A stretch of DNA of 64,000 bases from an uncultured virus (IMG/VR IMGVR_UViG_2513237125_000007) (Duplodnaviria; Heunggongvirae; Uroviricota; Caudoviricetes): the IMG/VR virus record IMGVR_UViG_2513237125_000007, positions 1 through 64,000 of that record. One strand, written 5' to 3'. Under the pieces are notes generated by a model. The model did not search any database and was not told where the DNA came from. It saw only the letters and a program-made list of their open reading frames with translations. The translations under genes were made by a program, and so were the position numbers. Positions 1-62,748 of this stretch are shown piece by piece. The stretch's first letter is position 1. Every line of letters begins with the position of its first letter.

Positions 1-906
1 ATGCAGGAACGTCCAGGACAAATTGGGAAATACTGGCTCAGTCGGCGTGCCGACTCTAAAAACTGGTATCGAACATGGTGTGAGTCTGCTACTCGACGGA
101 CAAAGCGCGCATCTCTTGGCACAACGGATATTCAAGAAGCGAAAATAAGTTTATACCTGTGGTACGCCAAACATGGCGATGTAAGCAAACAAACGCCACA
201 GGATATCCTCCTGGACTTAGTCCTAACCAGGTATTGGGAGCAACATGCCCAGAACACCACATCAGCGGAAAGCGCGAAAGCCGCATTGAATCGAGCATAC
301 AAGGAAGGGGAAATTACTTCGGTGCCATACATCATCCCAGGGAAAGACGCACCGCCCAGGGATCAGGTGCTATCACTTCAGGAGTCAGCCGCATTATGGG
401 AGGCCGCGACCCTATCTCATGAACGTATGTACCTTGCACTCGCTTATGGAACTCTGGCAAGACCAGAGGCGATCCTCGGACTACGGCGTGAGTTCGCAGA
501 CATCCAACGACGCCTATTGACGCAGAATCTACCAGGGCGCAAGCAGACGAAAAAGTTTCGGCCTGTCGTTCCCATCTGTGATTTTCTCCTTCCTTGGATA
601 CTGTCAGTAGACAGCGGTCCTCTGGTGCACTGGCACGGCAAACCTATTGCGAGCTTCAAAACTGCGCGGCGCGCATTACGGACACATGCAGGCTTACCCA
701 AGGACACCGTTCCAAAGGTAATCCGGCACACGATGGCTACCGAGCTACGCTCGGCAGGCATGGCTGCACAAGACATTCAAGGGATGCTTGGGCACCGTGC
801 ATATAGTGGGATTACGGACATCTATGCCAAGTAGCGGCCTGACTATATGGCCGATGCTGTTCGGGCTATTGATGCGTACATGGCCCAGCTGCGCGCCAGT
901 CAATGA
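1..906 (+). pseudogene. int: Degenerate phage tyrosine integrase (ORF 1..834; frame continues past the TAG to 906)
   Basis: Catalytic motifs LARP, IRHT, LGH and DIY are present. After TAG 832-834 the frame reads on RPDYMADAVRAIDAYMAQLR. The N-terminal part looks short for an integrase, so a core-binding-domain deletion near AESAK/AALNRA is inferred. Confidence 0.75.
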
Positions 907-1087
907 TTCACAGATTGTGCAACCTATTGATTCTATTGGTGGGCGGTACAGGGTTCGAACCTGTGACCCCTACCATGTCAAGGTAGATGGAGATTAGCAG
1001 AATCAACAACATAGACGTAATACAAACTACTTTGAGCCTCACAAAAATGCGGCTTTCAGCCGCAGTGCGTGTTAGTTGCGTGTCAGT
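890..1087. repeat. Putative integrase arm sites (TGCGYGYYAGT at 890-900, 1066-1076, 1077-1087) and IHF site (920-932) around att core 1
   Basis: 11-bp direct repeats on both sides of the core. AATCAATAGGTTG on the minus strand matches the IHF consensus WATCAANNNNTTR. Confidence 0.6.
937..986 (-). mobile_element. att core: 3' 50 nt of tRNA-Val(GAC), not a complete tRNA
   Basis: Reverse complement is CTACCTTGACATGGTAGGGGTCACAGGTTCGAACCCTGTACCGCCCACCA: anticodon arm with GAC, T-loop GGTTCGAAC, CCA end. No D-arm or 5' acceptor strand follows. It lies just downstream of int. Confidence 0.9.
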
Positions 1088-1165
1088 CTCTATGGTCTGC
1101 ACATACCTGAGGAGTAAACATGGATAAGGCGTCTTGTGGTAACCCCTCTGCCAAGTGGGTAAGCA

Positions 1166-1228
1166 GCCGGTAGAGGCGCTGCTCCAGCGCCACACGGGTT
1201 GAGCGGCCATCGTGGCCCCGCGTCCGGC
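1166..1228 (-). ncRNA. Putative structured RNA element, copy 1
   Basis: 63 nt nearly identical to 36818-36880; folds into a multi-stem junction. Confidence 0.5.
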
Positions 1229-1319
1229 AGGGTTACTATGCTGGATGAGGTGGGGGGTGGCGATATCGGAGAATGCCGCAGCGCGATGTAGGGGTTTCGG
1301 TATTGATTTCCTGAAGTGC

Positions 1320-2819
1320 TCAGATGCGCGCACGGACATAATCAGGAGCACCGGAAAGTATGCATGGCGCTTCGCCGTCCACTAAGTTAGGCACGGTGGC
1401 TTGCCCGTCGGTTCCGAACCGCCATCCCGACACCAAGCCATTGATAGACGTTAAATCCTTATGCGTGAAGAAATCAGTGATCTCGACACTAGAAAGCGCC
1501 CTGTTGAACACGCCCAGGCTGTGTAGATAGCCATTGAAATAGCGATCGGGTGATCCTGCGTTATAACGCCGTGCGATGGTGAACGGGGGCACAAGGGTTA
1601 ATGTGGTTGATGGTGTGCCACTTGCTTCGGAGTCCGTCCACGGTGTGGTGTGCGTAGCGGCATAGCAACGCCCCGCATCGTATTTGCCTGCGTGAGCAGT
1701 CCAACGCCCCGCCGTGGCAGAACCTGCGCCCTCGAACCCTCCGTATGGATTGGACCCATCCGCATAAGATTCATAATAGGTGAATGCGGTTTCGTCGGAG
1801 ACAGCGCCGATACGTAGTTGCGGCGTTCCTAATGCGCCGCCGCTGAATACCGCTTGACGTGTGCCGGTAGAGCCAAAGCTGCCGAGTGGGTTGTAAAGCG
1901 CCAGAATAGTGTGCGGCGTACCCCCGATGACCGACGAGGGAAGCGATGCGATATCACCCCATTGGTTTTTACCGTTAAACGCAACGCAAATAGCGGTCGT
2001 GTAGCTGGCTTGTCCGGTGATGCTTGCTGTGATGACGTCCGCTTCGCTGCTGCTCAGGAATACAAGGGCAGCGGCTTCGCCCTGTTGCAGTACAAACGCG
2101 CCTGCCGACCCGTTAAGGGTCATGCCTGCGCCTGAGGAGAGGGTCAGTGTTCCACTGGACTGGTTGGAAAGCACGGTGGCCATCCCAGACGATACCAGCA
2201 GCCCAGCGGGGACGGTCACCGTCTTGGCTCCGCTATATGTGAATCTCAAATAGCTCCCTGCCTGGGATTGTGTCAGGGTAGTTGCGGCTGATGCGATGTT
2301 TTCAATGCGCATACCGCCTGTGCTGCCACCACCTGCGGAAGCGGTATTGGCGTACACATGTTTATTCGCGGAGGCGTCCCACACCAATGCTTTTTTGTCT
2401 GCTATCCCGGAGGCGTCCACATCGGCAAGCGCGCTCACCTTCAGCAAGACGCTCCCTGTGTTGCCATTCACTGAAATCACCGGAACGGGGTGCCAGCCTT
2501 TTACGCCTGTGGCGTCGGTGCCGTAGTAGGACGTGCTTCCCGGGGAGCGTGCATCCCCCTCAAGGTTCAGACTGACGAAGCCGCTAGAAAGCGTGCCTGT
2601 TACATTGACTGAGCCTGTTGCAAGCAGTTGCGCATTGGGCGCGCTGCTACTGCCATTGGGGGGTGCGGTATGGAGAGCAGCTTGCAACGCGTCTATCTGC
2701 TGCTGTAACTGCGTTGCGGCATCGCTTGGGGATAACGAGGACAGGTAGGTGCGCCAGCTTCTTGTCACCAGTCCGGAGGCGTCAAGAAACGGTTCGTTAT
2801 TGTGGGGGATGGTGGTCAT
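1320..2819 (-). CDS. Putative tail fibre/receptor-binding protein with C-terminal LamG/concanavalin-A-like domain
   Basis: Last gene of the late operon; Ser/Thr/Gly-rich; C-terminal FNGYLHSLGVFNRALSSVEI..LVSGWRF is a LamG-type motif. Confidence 0.7.
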   Translation of the reverse strand: MTTIPHNNEPFLDASGLVTRSWRTYLSSLSPSDAATQLQQQIDALQAALHTAPPNGSSSAPNAQLLATGSVNVTGTLSSGFVSLNLEGDARSPGSTSYYGTDATGVKGWHPVPVISVNGNTGSVLLKVSALADVDASGIADKKALVWDASANKHVYANTASAGGGSTGGMRIENIASAATTLTQSQAGSYLRFTYSGAKTVTVPAGLLVSSGMATVLSNQSSGTLTLSSGAGMTLNGSAGAFVLQQGEAAALVFLSSSEADVITASITGQASYTTAICVAFNGKNQWGDIASLPSSVIGGTPHTILALYNPLGSFGSTGTRQAVFSGGALGTPQLRIGAVSDETAFTYYESYADGSNPYGGFEGAGSATAGRWTAHAGKYDAGRCYAATHTTPWTDSEASGTPSTTLTLVPPFTIARRYNAGSPDRYFNGYLHSLGVFNRALSSVEITDFFTHKDLTSINGLVSGWRFGTDGQATVPNLVDGEAPCILSGAPDYVRARI

Positions 2820-3598
2820 GCGACTCCCTGCCCGAAGGCGATCCAGTCAAAAGGGATGGGGGAGATGATCGGATCGGTGTTTTTCTCTTTGCTGTCTGCG
2901 ATCACGAAGTTAAACGTTGCATTGGTCGTCGATGTACCGCTGACGCTTTCTGCAACGAGGCTGCTGGCGGTGGCAAGTGCTGCGGTGACACTGGCTGTTA
3001 CGAAATAGGGGGTATTCGCGAACGGCTTTGGGAACGTCACCAGTTTCAAGGTGGCCGCTTTGCCACTGGCAGGGGCTGTGTCACGCCCCCACTGGATCAT
3101 GAAATTCCCAATCTTCAACATATCCGTACTGACGGTGTATTGGGGGTCCGGCGGACGTGGGAGGCTTTGCCAAAGCAGATTCTCGCCATCGGTGCCAAGC
3201 ACCTTACCACCCATCCCGACAGGGTCAGGGACTTCCCGAATGGCTGACCACAGCAATATCGCCCCGTTATTGGTCAGGAATTTGCTGGAATCCAATGCGG
3301 GGATGGTTAGGCCTCCGCCGCCAGGGATGGACACCCCGTCAGCCTCACCCTGTTTTGCACCGAGGCTGTCAAAGAGTTCGACGAAATAGGACCCTTGCCC
3401 CCAGATATCCACGTCAGGGCGACCTGAGCTATCCAGCCGAACCGCAACACCGTTGTTCACGGTCAATCCGCTATCGCCGTACACAGGGCGCGGGGTTGTC
3501 GTGCCTGCGTTATAGAACTTAAGCTGTCCGGCGGCCAGCAATTGCCCTGTCATTCCATAAAAGGTGTTCAGGCGTGAGAACAGGCGAAAGGCGGTCAT
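2816..3598 (-). CDS. Putative tail fibre/adaptor protein
   Basis: N-terminal head-binding-like LKFYNAGTTTP..LDSSGRP; C-terminal IQWG..VTFPKPF..WIAFG motif typical of tail-fibre C-termini. Confidence 0.65.
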   Translation of the reverse strand: MTAFRLFSRLNTFYGMTGQLLAAGQLKFYNAGTTTPRPVYGDSGLTVNNGVAVRLDSSGRPDVDIWGQGSYFVELFDSLGAKQGEADGVSIPGGGGLTIPALDSSKFLTNNGAILLWSAIREVPDPVGMGGKVLGTDGENLLWQSLPRPPDPQYTVSTDMLKIGNFMIQWGRDTAPASGKAATLKLVTFPKPFANTPYFVTASVTAALATASSLVAESVSGTSTTNATFNFVIADSKEKNTDPIISPIPFDWIAFGQGVA

Positions 3599-21721: not shown

Positions 21722-22321
21722 TTAGCTGAAGCGGCGATAAGTAACCCCCCTGACCTTTTGGGCAGCCTGTTCCATCTGAGGGCCGAGGGCCTTCTCTATA
21801 GGGCCAACGCCGCCGTGCAGGCCATCTAGCAGACGGTCGTAAAGCGCCCCGCTCATCTGCCTAGCCCCAAGCCATGCTAGGGCTTGCGGAACCTTGTTGG
21901 TGAATACCGTTTCATGCAGCGACTTGAATTGGCTGCACAGAATCCAGATGGCGTAAAGCACATCGTCATTCACCAGCGTTCCGGTAGCCGAATAGCCCCC
22001 CGTCTTGCGGATCGAGGGAAGGACTTCCGAGGTTACCCACTTGGAGAATTTACGTGCTTCTGGCTTTCTGGAGCGGAGTACCAAGGCGTATAGGCCCGAC
22101 TCGGAAATGATGTTGGTAGGAACCCCTAACGGGGCGTTAGGGGTAGGAATCTCAATGGTGGCGCGCTCATCGGAATCTAGATGATCCCCAAGAGCCTTGC
22201 TTGTGTTGGAGTAATTCAGCGCCCTGCAAACATCGCCAGCAATGAACCACGGATTGCCATCGCGCATCACAACGCGCACAGCGTGAGAATGAAAGTCGAA
22301 CGGGATAATGGACTGCGCCAT
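21722..22321 (-). CDS. Bro-N antirepressor-family protein
   Basis: FDFHSHAVR..PWF..DVC..ISESGLYALVLRSRKPEARKFSKWVTSEVLPSIRKTG; AGGAG RBS. Confidence 0.85.
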   Translation of the reverse strand: MAQSIIPFDFHSHAVRVVMRDGNPWFIAGDVCRALNYSNTSKALGDHLDSDERATIEIPTPNAPLGVPTNIISESGLYALVLRSRKPEARKFSKWVTSEVLPSIRKTGGYSATGTLVNDDVLYAIWILCSQFKSLHETVFTNKVPQALAWLGARQMSGALYDRLLDGLHGGVGPIEKALGPQMEQAAQKVRGVTYRRFS

Positions 22322-22384
22322 GAGAACGTCTCCTGCTTTTGAGAGGTGATCTCGGGGAGACGTTTCTAAGCGCCGACCCGAGAA

Positions 22385-22465
22385 TGTCGGGAGGTTAGAA
22401 ACCGGAAAGCAGACCGGCCAGCAGCTTTCCCCTTGCGGGTGTTGTATCGCTGCTGCCTCCCGACG
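22385..22465 (-). ncRNA. C4/CI-like antisense RNA, allele 1
   Basis: GTCGGGAGG..CCTCCCGAC closing stem; exposed CTGCTTT and GTTTCTAA are complementary to paired targets upstream (22516-22536) and downstream (22333-22369, over the RBS). Confidence 0.8.
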
Positions 22466-22550
22466 TAAAAACGTACGGGCACAAAAAATCCGCGAGCTGA
22501 CGAGTGCGGATACCGCTGCTTTCTCGGAGTTTCTAAGCTCCTTACCAGCG

Positions 22551-22579
22551 ACGGTACCGCAGCCACGTACAGTGGTCAA
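22551..22579 (-). promoter_or_regulatory. Promoter of C4 module 1 (TTGACC-17-TACCGT)
   Basis: Both hexamers and the spacing are conserved at 62749-62777. Confidence 0.65.
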
Positions 22580-22581
22580 GC

Positions 22582-22965
22582 TCACGACACAGTCCGAGCC
22601 ATGCGCGCTTGCAAGGTTTCTAAGCCTTTTACTGCGGCAATGAACTCACGTTGCAACTGTGCCGCTTCATCATCAGGGTTCAATGGCTGTGGTTCTGTGT
22701 AACCGGCATCGCGCGCTTCGTAGTGCGCCAAGATATGCACTCCCGCCTTGCGGGCTTCTATCCGGATCGAACGTAATTCGCTCAGGTCGAGCTTTTCCCG
22801 TTTATTAGGGTTGAGACACGAGGCCAACTTGCGGCCTGCGTCATCGGCAGGCATGTCAGGCCACAGCATATTCCCTACTTTCTTGAATCCGCCAAGGGCG
22901 GTCACGCAATCGTGGATCACATCCTCGTAAGAGTAATAAAACAACGTGTTTTGCAGGCTTGTCAC
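22582..22965 (-). CDS. CII-like regulatory protein (putative)
   Basis: HTH-like GGFKKVG..LNPNKREKL; downstream of cro. Confidence 0.5.
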   Translation of the reverse strand: MTSLQNTLFYYSYEDVIHDCVTALGGFKKVGNMLWPDMPADDAGRKLASCLNPNKREKLDLSELRSIRIEARKAGVHILAHYEARDAGYTEPQPLNPDDEAAQLQREFIAAVKGLETLQARMARTVS

Positions 22966-35494: not shown

Positions 35495-36558
35495 ATGCGC
35501 CCAAAATCAAGCCACAAAGATTTGCCGCCCAAGATGCTACGCCGTACCCGCGTATTAAAAAGCGGAAAAGTGTGGGAGTCGTTTTACTACAACGGGCGCA
35601 CCACCGAAGGGCGGCGCGTTGAAATTCCGTTGGGGGGTGATTTAAACGAAGCAAAGCGTCAATGGGCGGAGTTGGAGTGCTGCAAGGCCCCCGTAGAAAC
35701 AGAAGTGCTTGGCTTTATATTTGATCGCTATTTGCGCGAAGTGGCACCCACTAAAGCGCGTGCAACCCGGTACCAAATTAAAAGCTGCATTACCACGTTA
35801 CGTAAAGTATTCGGCGATGTGAATATTCATACAGTGACCCCGCAGCAGCTTGCACAGTACCGCGACAAACGCGCACGCACTGCGCCGGTACTCGCTAACC
35901 GGGAACTCAGTGTGTTTTCCAGCGTGTGGACTATGGCGCGTGAATGGGGCTACACCAATAAAGAAAACCAAGTGAAAGGGATTCGCAAAATCAAAGAAAA
36001 ACCCCGTGATTTCTACGCCGATGCTGCTGTATGGAACGCTGTCTATGCCAAGGCGTGTGAAGAACTCAAAGATGCGATGGATTTAGCCTATTTAACCGGC
36101 CAACGGCCTGCTGATGTCCTCAAGATGCGCTTTACGGATATTAGAGATGGCTCGCTTGAGGTACAACAAAACAAAACAAAGAAGAAGTTAGCGAATTCTT
36201 TTGGAGAGTGAGGGAATACGCACAGAATTAGGGAAAGTGATCGACCGTATTAAGGCGCGCAAACGTAAGGTTGTCGGCTTTTCTCTCGTCTCCACATCGA
36301 AAGGCGTTGGGCTAGGGCAGCAAGCCCTTGCGAGTCCGATTCCAACGTGCGCGAGTTGCTGCTGCAAAGGTTGCCTCTGAATCGGGCGAAGCAGATTTAG
36401 CAAAAAGAATTCTTATTTTTCAGTTCCGCGATATTCGCCCCAAGGCTGCGAGTGAACTACCGTTGGAACATGCCAGCAAGCTGTTAGGCCACACTCAGCA
36501 GCAAATCACCCAGCGGGTGTATCGGCGCGTTGGGGAAGTAGTGAAGCCTACCAAGTGA
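35495..36558 (+). pseudogene. int: Tyrosine integrase with two +1 frameshifts (about 36191 and 36326)
   Basis: TGQR, QNKT, FRDIR, LLGH, VY motifs lie in three frames; removing two bases gives one open frame. Confidence 0.8.
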
Positions 36559-36793: not shown

Positions 36794-36817
36794 GATTTTT
36801 AGCGGTCGAATTAAGGT

Positions 36818-36880
36818 GCCGGTAGAGGCGCTGCTCCAGCGCCACGCGGGTTGAGCGGCCTCAATGGCCCCGCGTCCGGC
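36818..36880 (-). ncRNA. Putative structured RNA element, copy 2
   Basis: 63 nt nearly identical to 1166-1228. Confidence 0.5.
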
Positions 36881-36968
36881 AAGGATTAAGATGCCTCATG
36901 AAGCGGGACGGTGGTATCAGAGAATGCCGCATTGAGGTATCAGAAAATGTGGAACTGATAGTAGGTCC

Positions 36969-38051
36969 CTATATGTTCTGATGGTCAGCGCGGGAGTGGC
37001 GCATGACGTGATCGCGTACTTGCGTGTTGATGGCGGCAGCAACATCCGGATGGCTGTTGGGCCGCTCGGCTTCGACGCTACACCGGTAGCCGTTTTTGTC
37101 TAGGCAATGTTGCACACGGGTGACGAGCCAATCGCCATTAACTCCTTCCCGCCAGCCGTTGAGAGTCAAGACGGCTTCTGCGGACAGCTCCGCACGCCCT
37201 GCCATCTCTAGAGTGAGTTTGGTTTCAGCACGGGCACGGCGTGAGAGTTCACCCCGAGCGGCGGCGATGGCGGCAGCAGCATCAGGTAGGTATTGTTTGA
37301 TGCGGTGAACGGGATGCCCGTCGCCGACGCTGACTTGATGCAGTTCAGCGCGGCGTGCCAGACGGTAGAAGGCAACCACTGTGCCGGGGCTGTCCCGCGT
37401 TGCGTAGGTCATTTGCCAGGAGGCGATCGCATCAGGTGTCAAGGTGATGCGTGGCATATCAATGCCTGTGACGCTTTTAGACTCGCCGCGTTTGGCAAAA
37501 ATCAGTCGGCCTCCGGCAGGTTTAGCAATCGCATCGTACCGCTGTGCTAGCCGTAGCAGGACGTTGATATCTGATTCTTCTGTCTGATCAATGTGTGGTA
37601 ATGCCACTCCTGCTAGTGACGGGGAGATCGCGGGAGCCATGCCATGTTCGGCAGCCATTGTGGATAGCATGGCACCGAGTGTGGTTCCGGCAGGCCAGGA
37701 GCGGGTTTTTTGGGTTTGCAGGTCACTTTTGCCTTTAGGGGTGCCTTCCCAGGGGGCAGCGTGGGCGCGCAGGGTCATTGTGGCCGGCCATCCGGACAAT
37801 TGGATTTCGCTACACACAAAAACGCCCATCGGGCGTAATTGGCCGTCGTAGCCTAATGCCAGTTCCAGTTCCGCCCCCATCGGTGGCAGCTTGAGCGGGG
37901 CGTTAGGCAGATGATCAGCCAGGACCACTTCCAAGGTATCAGCATGACTTCCGGACTCATCGGACAGCTGTAGGCTTGCCATACGTGCGGCGATGAGGGC
38001 GGTAATATCGTTGTCGTTGGCGATGAGCCGGTAAGAGGGCGTCACTCCCAC
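36969..38051 (-). CDS. P2 gpD-like baseplate hub/late control protein
   Basis: LGYDG, HIDQTEESD..L.RLA motifs; end of the tail operon. Confidence 0.88.
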   Translation of the reverse strand: MGVTPSYRLIANDNDITALIAARMASLQLSDESGSHADTLEVVLADHLPNAPLKLPPMGAELELALGYDGQLRPMGVFVCSEIQLSGWPATMTLRAHAAPWEGTPKGKSDLQTQKTRSWPAGTTLGAMLSTMAAEHGMAPAISPSLAGVALPHIDQTEESDINVLLRLAQRYDAIAKPAGGRLIFAKRGESKSVTGIDMPRITLTPDAIASWQMTYATRDSPGTVVAFYRLARRAELHQVSVGDGHPVHRIKQYLPDAAAAIAAARGELSRRARAETKLTLEMAGRAELSAEAVLTLNGWREGVNGDWLVTRVQHCLDKNGYRCSVEAERPNSHPDVAAAINTQVRDHVMRHSRADHQNI

Positions 38052-61692: not shown

Positions 61693-62520
61693 TTAGCTAA
61701 AACGGCGATAAGTAACCCCCCTGACCTTTTGGGCAGCCTGTTCCAGGTGCGGGCCGAGGGCTTTTTCTGAGAACGCTTTACTCATGCGCTCGATCGCGGC
61801 TTTTGCGATATCTGGTAGATGCTTGCTTGGAAACGTTGGGTGTCTGACCCAATCGGCTACTTCGTCGCTAGTAAGAACATTGGTATGCAGCGTGACGGGT
61901 GTCAGCCGTAGCCTGAAGTCATGATCGAAATCCAATACCCAGCGATGCCATCTCAATAGTTCGACGAGTGCTGATGTGGCAATGGCTTCACTATCTTCCA
62001 ACCCTTTTGGGAATTCAGGCTCTTTTATTCCTGCGGACTCAAGTAGCCGTCTGACATCGCTAATCCAACGGCTATGAGCGGTGTTTAACTCCTCCATATG
62101 CTTACGGTCTTTGGAGTAGCTGCGCATCTGGTCGTATCCCAGATCAGGATGAACTGTGTACTCGCACGTCTTGCGGATCGAGGGGAGGACTTCCAACACA
62201 TCCAGCACCCAGCGACGAAACGCGGCGGCGACTGAAGTACGGGCAAACATCGCCACCAGGTGGCAGCCGCGAGGGCTGAAGAGTCGGACAGGTTTGTCTG
62301 AGTTGCCGCTTCCAAACCCCTTGGTGGCCAAATTGACCACCAAGGTCATTTGATAGGTGAACTCGTCGGAATGACGGTTGTAGATACGTGAAACGGATCG
62401 TTCATCGGCGTAGCCAAGCGCTCGGGCCAGATCGGCAGCCGTCAAGTACGGCATACCGTCACGGTCGATAATGGAAAGGGATTGGCCGGAAAAACACACG
62501 GCAGCAGGTAACTGCGTCAT
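61693..62520 (-). CDS. Bro-N-like antirepressor-family protein
   Basis: LTAADLARALGY..IYNRHSDEF..RLFSPRGCHLVAMFART..AFRRWVLD; AGGAG RBS. Confidence 0.8.
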   Translation of the reverse strand: MTQLPAAVCFSGQSLSIIDRDGMPYLTAADLARALGYADERSVSRIYNRHSDEFTYQMTLVVNLATKGFGSGNSDKPVRLFSPRGCHLVAMFARTSVAAAFRRWVLDVLEVLPSIRKTCEYTVHPDLGYDQMRSYSKDRKHMEELNTAHSRWISDVRRLLESAGIKEPEFPKGLEDSEAIATSALVELLRWHRWVLDFDHDFRLRLTPVTLHTNVLTSDEVADWVRHPTFPSKHLPDIAKAAIERMSKAFSEKALGPHLEQAAQKVRGVTYRRFS

Positions 62521-62583
62521 AAAACGTCTCCTGTTTCGTGAGATGACCACAGGAGGAACGTTCTTAGGCGCCGCACCTGTGGG

Positions 62584-62664
62584 TGTCGGGAGGCTAAGAA
62601 ACCGGAAACAGACGGCGGGCAGCTTTCCCCTTGCGGGTGTTGTATCGCTGCCGCCCTCCCGACG
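62584..62664 (-). ncRNA. C4/CI-like antisense RNA, allele 2
   Basis: Same scaffold as allele 1; exposed CTGTTTCC and TTCTTAG match targets at 62716-62734 and 62531-62567. Confidence 0.8.
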
Positions 62665-62748
62665 TAAAAACGTGCAGGCGTAAAAAAACCGCATGGATTT
62701 CGGATGCGGGTACCGCTGTTTCCAGAGTTCTTAGGCTCCTTACCGGCG

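Follow-up and report, generated by a model that had tools for sequence, protein, structure and literature searches.

An sX11-type candidate RNA unit at the prophage ends of Xylella, Stenotrophomonas and Xanthomonas phages

In phage lambda the sib/tI site is responsible for retroregulation of int, and sib acts there as a long RNase III hairpin within the transcript that carries int in sense orientation. The put RNA of phage HK022 is a cis-acting antiterminator of about 65 nt found at the head of its transcript. It comprises two stem-loops with about one unpaired base between them. The small RNA sX11 (Rfam RF02230) was found in Xanthomonas campestris pv. vesicatoria 85-10 (Schmidtke et al. 2012, PMC3300014). 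There sX11 is described as a 138-nt RNA with a primary start in dRNA-seq and a Northern signal in Xanthomonas, and is reported to be repressed by HrpG/HrpX and to be without known function (PMC3300014). Here we describe a short structured element at prophage ends and compare it with these systems.

The window (the whole stretch of DNA that was analysed, 64,000 nucleotides) belongs to a 77.7-kb IMG/VR provirus record which contains exactly two copies of the element. The cores lie at 1165–1229 (copy A) and 36817–36881 (copy B), and in both the sense strand is the minus strand of the window. The covariance model R1, described below, scores them at 85.9 bits (E 2e-16) and 94 bits (E 3.4e-18) respectively, and found no third copy in the window or in the whole 77.7-kb record. 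The original prediction had placed two copies at 1166–1228 and 36818–36880, with differences in the P3 loop and one change in P2, and all of this is correct; over these stretches the copies differ only in that loop (ATCG versus TCAA) and at one P2 position (A1194 versus G). A conserved element is indeed present, but its extent was put too low at 63 nt: homology between the copies spans approximately 1160–1298 and 36812 to approximately 36950, with 82% identity over 121 nt, and the conserved unit is about 135 nt long. It includes upstream blocks at 1230–1298 and 36882–36950 (both minus strand). Block A, recognised in alignments, is promoter-like and contains TGCGGCATTCTC at 1270–1281; the second conserved block that had been predicted, GAGAATGCCGCA, was located at 1270–1281 and 36921–36932. 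Block B contains a tandem duplicate of GGTATCAGARAATG at 36911–36924 and 36936–36949 (plus-strand positions). The same duplicate (36911–36949) is also found upstream in the gpD-linked relatives L004, L009 and L037, and the YYGATA motif discussed below is thereby doubled.

Copy A is flanked by integrase A (1–834, plus strand; Pfam Phage_integrase, E 1.7e-9), which is convergent with the sense strand of the element. Between the two are a tRNA 3' fragment that is likely to be the att core (937–986, minus strand) and, 100 nt downstream of core A, a terminator-like hairpin TGCGGCTGAAAGCCGCA with a T run (1040–1064, minus strand). No complete tRNA was found in the window. On the other side, 20 nt upstream of block A and on the same strand, is the last late gene (1320–2819, minus strand), a tail-fibre-like ORF with a Laminin_G_3 match which is a homologue of gp45 of Xylella phage Xfas53. 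At copy B the integrase fragment (35495–36211, plus strand) matches Pfam Int_N and only positions 23–72 of the 172 in the Phage_integrase profile; it comprises the N-terminal domains with the start, or first third, of the catalytic domain, and looks truncated. The last late gene at this end is gpD-like and belongs to a myovirus module (36969–38051, minus strand; Pfam Phage_GPD). The Pfam matches agree with the flanks first proposed, namely an integrase and a fibre-like gene at copy A and an integrase fragment and gpD at copy B. In both cases the order is int (plus strand), att fragment and element, so that the element lies beyond att and downstream of int. It is plausible that these two sites are attP, and the order of int, att, element and late genes could equally mark a seam between tandem prophages rather than a free attP.

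Contigs from RNA runs extend from 937 and from 986 into full tRNA sequence. Five such runs contain a small share of the region 600–2600. In four of them, compared with 1–3000, int, the tRNA fragment and several variants of the core are represented by contigs, and 1300–3000 by none; these contigs are unstranded, end where repeat copies diverge and may include DNA carry-over.

The core is a junction of two arms closed by a 6-bp helix, P1. The P2 arm (6 bp) encloses a 3-bp P3 hairpin and an unpaired (C/A)GCUCA, and the P4 arm (5 bp) has the loop nnGAGCA. In copy A the bulge is CGCUCAA and the P4 loop is UGGAGCA. The longest helix of the core is 7 bp and the helices range from 3 to 7 bp. Helices P1 to P4 and the unpaired CGCTCAA are present as first drawn, and so is the G-C/G-U change in P2, where the copy A variant gives a U.G pair in the minus-strand fold but an A.C mismatch in that of the plus strand. 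In each window copy the minus strand has the more stable fold: copy A at -34.7 kcal/mol (z -1.8) against -31.7 (z -0.7) for the plus strand, copy B at -39.4 (z -3.4) against -37.3 (z -2.3).

The element belongs to a wider family and is not private to the window. The nearest named relative of the record is Xylella phage Xfas53, in which the element is found between gp45 and int. Pattern scans of IMG/VR seeded from the window returned 16, 20 and 27 stretches, and two more carriers, Stenotrophomonas phage S1 and a Xanthomonas hortorum plasmid, came from blastn. A looser pattern in which only GCTCA, CCCG, GAGCA and CCGG were fixed gave 89 stretches, 80 of which were listed. R1 matches all 80 listed loci (80 of the 89) over its full length, 79 of them at 55–94 bits and one at 31; its score is 58.4 bits for the element of phage S1 and 73.9 bits for that of the X. 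hortorum plasmid. Xfas53 and S1 are the two named phages with the element, which is unannotated in both records, and literature searches on sX11 in Xanthomonas, on Xfas53 and attP, and on small RNAs and ncRNAs of Xylella prophages brought up no description of it.

A pattern was also run over genome contigs, in a scan that possibly leaves Xylella genomes outside it. The only result was an exact 31-nt match in a Roseateles toxinivorans contig (L025, 2001–2031). It lies inside a LytTR response-regulator gene whose protein reads HRSTLGALEQRL, and was judged a chance coding match. R1 gave no match in 151 genomes of the Burkholderiales, the order of Roseateles, a set that holds no Xanthomonadales.

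R1 is based on a MAFFT-only alignment of 23 distinct cores on the minus strand. Pairing in that alignment amounts to 97.4% of cells when it is read as the minus strand and 95.8% as the plus strand, and three to four pairs are compensatory. When 69 distinct cores were aligned to R1, 96.6% of cells were paired and seven pairs, accounting for 49 cells, were altered on both sides; these counts lean towards the minus-strand model to which the alignment was fitted. Examples are pair 9–44 (GC in 35 and CG in 27) and pair 15–32 (GC in 62 and AU in 6). The covariation score was 0.160 against 0.088 in shuffles, with none of 500 shuffles reaching 0.160, and in slid controls only 35–49% of cells pair. Minus-strand pairing of the G-U kind, which the plus strand would lose, is seen in 46 cells, against 14 A-C or C-A cells that would pair only on the plus strand (pair 1–73 excluded); five of the 14 fall in the variable last pair of P2. 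Of the covariation asked for in the original prediction, compensatory changes are thus seen in seven pairs, in an alignment fitted to the model, and none falls in P1.

Loop and linker lengths differ by 1–3 nt among copies, and there is no conserved reading frame. A protein-coding reading was rejected for both strands. The plus-strand ORF that begins in the P3 loop (MAPRPA...) has unrelated tails, no conserved product and no start outside Xylella, and the minus-strand frames are interrupted by stop codons in the loops and by 1-nt indels.

The GCUC and GAGC motifs could pair with each other as a pseudoknot. Single changes are seen in each motif, GUUC in L003 and GGGCA in L037, and both keep U-G pairing in the putative pseudoknot. 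The search patterns required GCTCA, GAGCA and CCGG, so the invariance of these motifs is not independent evidence and the case for the pseudoknot is weak.

In the 80 nt upstream of the core, short motifs are conserved at fixed spacing and the intervening sequence is variable. These flanks, of which 76 are distinct, were left unconstrained by the search pattern. A -10-like hexamer, NANNNT, is found at -11 to -6, with A at -10 in 72 of the 76 and T at -6 in the same number; its variants include CATCCT (19 flanks) and CAATCT (16 flanks). YYGAT occurs 38–40 nt upstream in most of the 76. In the window the hexamer of copy A is CATAGT (1235–1240, minus strand; positions -11 to -6, 5 nt before the core) and that of copy B is CATCTT (36888–36893, minus strand; positions -12 to -7, 6 nt before the core). 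The second motif is CCGATA in copy A (1264–1269, minus strand; positions -40 to -35, 35–40 nt before the core) and CTGATA in copy B (36915–36920, minus strand; positions -39 to -34, 34–39 nt before the core). A canonical -35 is absent, and YYGATA lies 21–23 nt from the hexamer. A sigma-70 promoter scan predicted nothing at either window copy or at locus L023, and no consensus RNA structure was predicted when the upstream block was tested. A canonical terminator directly precedes the upstream region in L096 and L162, therefore these copies need a promoter of their own. Taken with the compensatory changes and the wobble asymmetry, the -10-like hexamer upholds the central proposal of a structured, RNA-level unit that is read on the minus strand and is common to unrelated phage modules.

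A subfamily of the upstream region (L116, L124, L147, L160 and L163) has a perfect 20-bp palindrome between YYGATA and the hexamer, for example GATATGGGAAATCCCATATC. This palindrome looks like an operator for a dimeric regulator.

No Rfam family matches the element at the gathering threshold. In a permissive search sX11 was the sole family matched, on the minus strand, in both window copies (21.7 and 22.2 bits) and in six relatives (15.3–31.8 bits), all below the gathering cut-off of 70. A tRNA with a terminator scored 21.8 bits with the RF02230 model, so that the RF02230 score alone proves nothing. The Rfam cmscan search first suggested as a check thus brings up sX11 at 22 bits, but short of the 70-bit cut-off. 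RF02230 gave no match in 151 genomes of the class to which Roseateles belongs, a set with no Xanthomonadales that is silent on absence elsewhere.

Real sX11 loci were therefore compared directly with the phage form. They were fetched by a pattern made from the Rfam consensus, which gave seven metagenome loci, six of them at 115–118 bits. R1 scores 14.4 bits on real sX11 (E 0.27), and a strict sX11-consensus pattern had no match in viral contigs. In both forms P1 closes two arms: arm 1 contains a GCUCA bulge, arm 2 is a 5-bp stem capped by a 7-nt loop, and a linker of 3–4 nt returns to P1. The arm 2 loop is CUGAGCA in sX11 and in phage relatives of high GC content, and UGGAGCA in the window and in Xylella. 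The likeness extends upstream, where both have CCGATA at about -38 and NANNNT at -11 to -6 before the first base of P1. In L182, the one sX11 locus whose flank was read, CCGATA is at -38 to -33 and CACAAT at -11 to -6 before the RNA start. In sX11 and in the phage form the upstream motifs lie 5' of the same RNA strand.

The two forms also differ. Arm 1 of sX11 contains a 37-nt insert of two hairpins, one of which has the C-rich loop ACUCCCCA; at this position the phage form has only the 3-bp P3 with a loop of 3–6 nt. sX11 has an intrinsic terminator 7 nt after P1, whereas the phage form usually lacks a terminator. sX11 is single-copy and chromosomal, between adk and mpl (context read in locus L183), whereas the phage form occurs in many copies and is located at prophage ends. 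The phage element looks like a stripped-down, phage-borne relative of sX11. The original prediction had recognised no family, a view that does not survive this comparison: real sX11 shares the promoter geometry, the architecture and the loop motifs, though the RF02230 score is far below the cut-off.

Two other RNAs invite comparison. sRNA-Xcc1 (RF02221) has matches in the window at 22378–22464 and 62577–62663, both on the minus strand, of 67.7 and 82.3 bits against a cut-off of 53. They are found in the early region, where a conserved leader sequence of about 270 nt immediately precedes the probable true start codons of two genes with a Bro-N domain. A D5-type primase/helicase gene comes after each of the two, and the long ORFs called at 21722–22585 and 61693–62694 extend through sRNA-Xcc1. 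Like the element, sRNA-Xcc1 is a small non-coding unit of prophage and plasmid accessory regions that is shuffled among unrelated neighbours (a 'moron' sRNA). It has a different sequence and fold and belongs to an early-region leader, not to an att end. The put RNA of HK022, compared by description only, resembles the element in its length, in its two stem-loops with about one unpaired base between them and in its place at the head of a transcript, which for the element is a proposed one; put follows early promoters and has no enclosing P1.

The sense strand of the element faces the nearer end of the provirus record in 76 of the 80 listed loci, with a median of 2.6 kb ahead of it and 39 kb behind. 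As a rule the unit directly follows the last late gene; in the window and in many relatives it begins 20–160 nt behind that gene and lies on its strand. The upstream neighbour is either such a co-directional late gene or a divergent cargo gene (for example Panacea, HigBA or BrnTA, and an SOS-response peptidase in S1). Downstream, a co-directional ORF starts after 21–155 nt in roughly half of 85 distinct flanks, by a reading of the ORF list. These ORFs belong to several unrelated small-protein families, an MqsA-like HTH among them in Xylella, as assigned from the ORF list and in part from Pfam and NCBIfam. In about a dozen flanks a convergent gene ends within 10 nt, and the remaining flanks hold att or int. 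Such mixed neighbours are more in keeping with an independent unit than with a terminator or with a dedicated leader. The original suggestion that the element is the leader of a lost gene gains from the frequent co-directional ORF in relatives, but not from the copies that are followed by a convergent gene end or by att. A terminator-like site is present within 150 nt downstream in only two of 84 distinct flanks, both of the copy A type, and copy B has none; the phage form is therefore not a classic stand-alone sRNA.

Some of the small ORFs that recur 74–155 nt downstream of the core may be related to each other (L089, L094, L105, L108, L113, L133 and others). Their N-termini read MLPSHGYQGFRTAPIPSGW..., MPLPADFxWTTRSAS... 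and MTLPEELAWDRTDQWGRDW..., and they are preceded by the palindrome TCGCAG-GATC-TGCGA and by TATCCT near the ATG. The downstream ORF of L082 (108 aa) had no Pfam or NCBIfam match.

We consider that the element is best explained as a phage-borne, sX11-type promoter followed by a 65-nt structured 5' RNA domain that is read outward on the minus strand, and we give this reading a probability of about 0.58. It is favoured by the conservation, the compensatory structure and the strand bias, by a position and orientation that stay constant, and by a promoter geometry that real sX11 also has. Each copy would be a small sX11-type transcription unit at the late-gene/att end of temperate Xylella, Stenotrophomonas and Xanthomonas phages. 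YYGATA about 38 nt upstream and NANNNT 5–6 nt upstream would start a minus-strand RNA at the first base of the 65-nt domain. Because the phage form is usually without a terminator, the domain would be the 5' head of a transcript that leaves the prophage outward. This transcript may enter a cargo ORF, run antisense into the end of a convergent gene or cross att, and in the int-att-element arrangement of the window it would be antisense to int. We infer both the transcription from the proposed start and what the RNA does; our guess is that the domain is a stabilising or regulatory 5' part of an outward transcript expressed in the lysogen.

The proximity of the unit to the late genes suggests instead that it belongs to the 3' end of the late operon, where a compact fold would stop the transcript or protect its 3' end, or where an RNA derived from the 3'-UTR would be cut out, and a promoter of its own would be needless. 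We regard this as rather unlikely. The short distance of 20–160 nt to a co-directional last late gene, which the window shares with many relatives, and the lack of a predicted sigma-70 promoter are what such an arrangement would give, and the strand bias fits it equally well. However, a divergent gene or a canonical terminator is found just upstream in the Panacea, HigBA and BrnTA cassettes, in S1, and in L096 and L162, and the hexamer and YYGAT are conserved at fixed distances across a variable spacer. A U tract is absent behind both P4 and P1. In addition real sX11, which has the same upstream motifs, has a primary start (PMC3300014).

The position of the element relative to int raises a further alternative, a topology-dependent and functionally sib-like brake on int. 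The outward RNA would be harmless in the lysogen and would become antisense to int once int, attP and the element are contiguous, whether after excision, on infection or at a tandem junction. The element and a convergent int lie on opposite sides of att at both places in the window, in L003, L004 and L017 and in Xfas53, the element points outward at the prophage end in the 76 of 80 listed loci, and most copies have no terminator. Copy A nevertheless has its terminator-like hairpin before att, and after many copies there are cargo genes and not att. We consider a brake of this kind improbable. It would in any case not be sib itself. Both sit close to attP on its late-gene side, with a convergent int on the other side, and would be joined to int only where attP is formed; the strand supported for the element runs antisense to int, its helices span 3–7 bp with no long RNase III-type duplex, and a promoter-like signal is present. 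Of the sib-like retroregulation first envisaged, the position across att from int therefore stands, but the strand opposite to int, helices of at most 7 bp and the missing long RNase III hairpin do not fit. In its most elaborate form, which we hold to be a long shot, the idea becomes a topology-sensing switch. A constitutive, terminator-less outward promoter with a nuclease-resistant 5' domain would fire into host DNA in the lysogen and yield a stable antisense RNA to int, or to the int of a neighbouring prophage, only once attP has re-formed. Such a switch would apply the logic of sib by means of an antisense RNA in at least 80 Xanthomonadales proviruses, and would be derived from host sX11 or ancestral to it.

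Conservation might also act on the DNA. Here the element would be a hot spot of module exchange, or a folded single-strand recombination site for cargo cassettes, conserved through recombination. Flanking sequences change abruptly at both edges of the unit. L004 (2890–3300) and L005 (2760–3130) are recombinant: up to the word TAAG they have the left flank of copy A with its att, and from there on the copy-B variant of the element with the right-hand gpD flank, so that the unit is a crossover point as well. One provirus (G307; locus L003, 400–1400 and 2900–3060) has three copies within 2.6 kb with toxin-antitoxin cassettes between them, and several others have two; in G308 and G153 there are two copies within 2.6 kb and two within 3.2 kb. 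The genes between arrayed copies are BrnT-BrnA, HigB-HigA and RelE-like cassettes, all opposite to the sense strand of the element, in a cassette-like layout. Folded single-stranded DNA would also tolerate the G-T wobble. Homologous exchange, however, needs neither compensatory changes nor a conserved -10-like hexamer, and the chromosomal sX11 between adk and mpl has the same design outside any cassette context. Identity with an integron attC was tested and rejected: an integron-type integrase is missing (25.5 bits for integrase A, with a TIGR02249 cut-off of 265), no R'/R'' core sites were seen, and the word GTTGAGC is internal, reads GTGGAGC in many copies and lies away from the cassette edge. 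A site acting at the DNA level is in our estimation an improbable explanation.

A selfish REP- or MITE-like short repeat, or a decayed and functionless gene fragment, is very improbable: the element is short, GC-rich, palindromic and multi-copy, Xylella copies have a TAAG(G) word at both edges and the Roseateles LytTR gene contains the exact-pattern match, but copies were seen only at prophage ends and on one plasmid, in fixed orientation (IMG/VR scans and blastn), terminal inverted repeats beyond P1 are absent, the 151 Burkholderiales genomes have no R1 match, and the varying loops and linkers and the plus-strand ORF described above do not fit a decayed gene.

The reading of the element as an sX11-type promoter with a structured 5' domain has consequences for both forms. 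Rfam has no family that captures these elements, and they constitute a new RNA motif with 69 distinct cores, a defined strand, a likely start and a rule of position and orientation at prophage ends. sX11 thereby gains a minimal conserved core, the P1-P2-P4 junction with its GCUC and GAGC motifs, and a candidate promoter is now proposed for each of the two RNAs. Should the phage RNA affect int or the cargo at the prophage end, it would serve as a general control element among the temperate phages of an important group of plant-associated bacteria.
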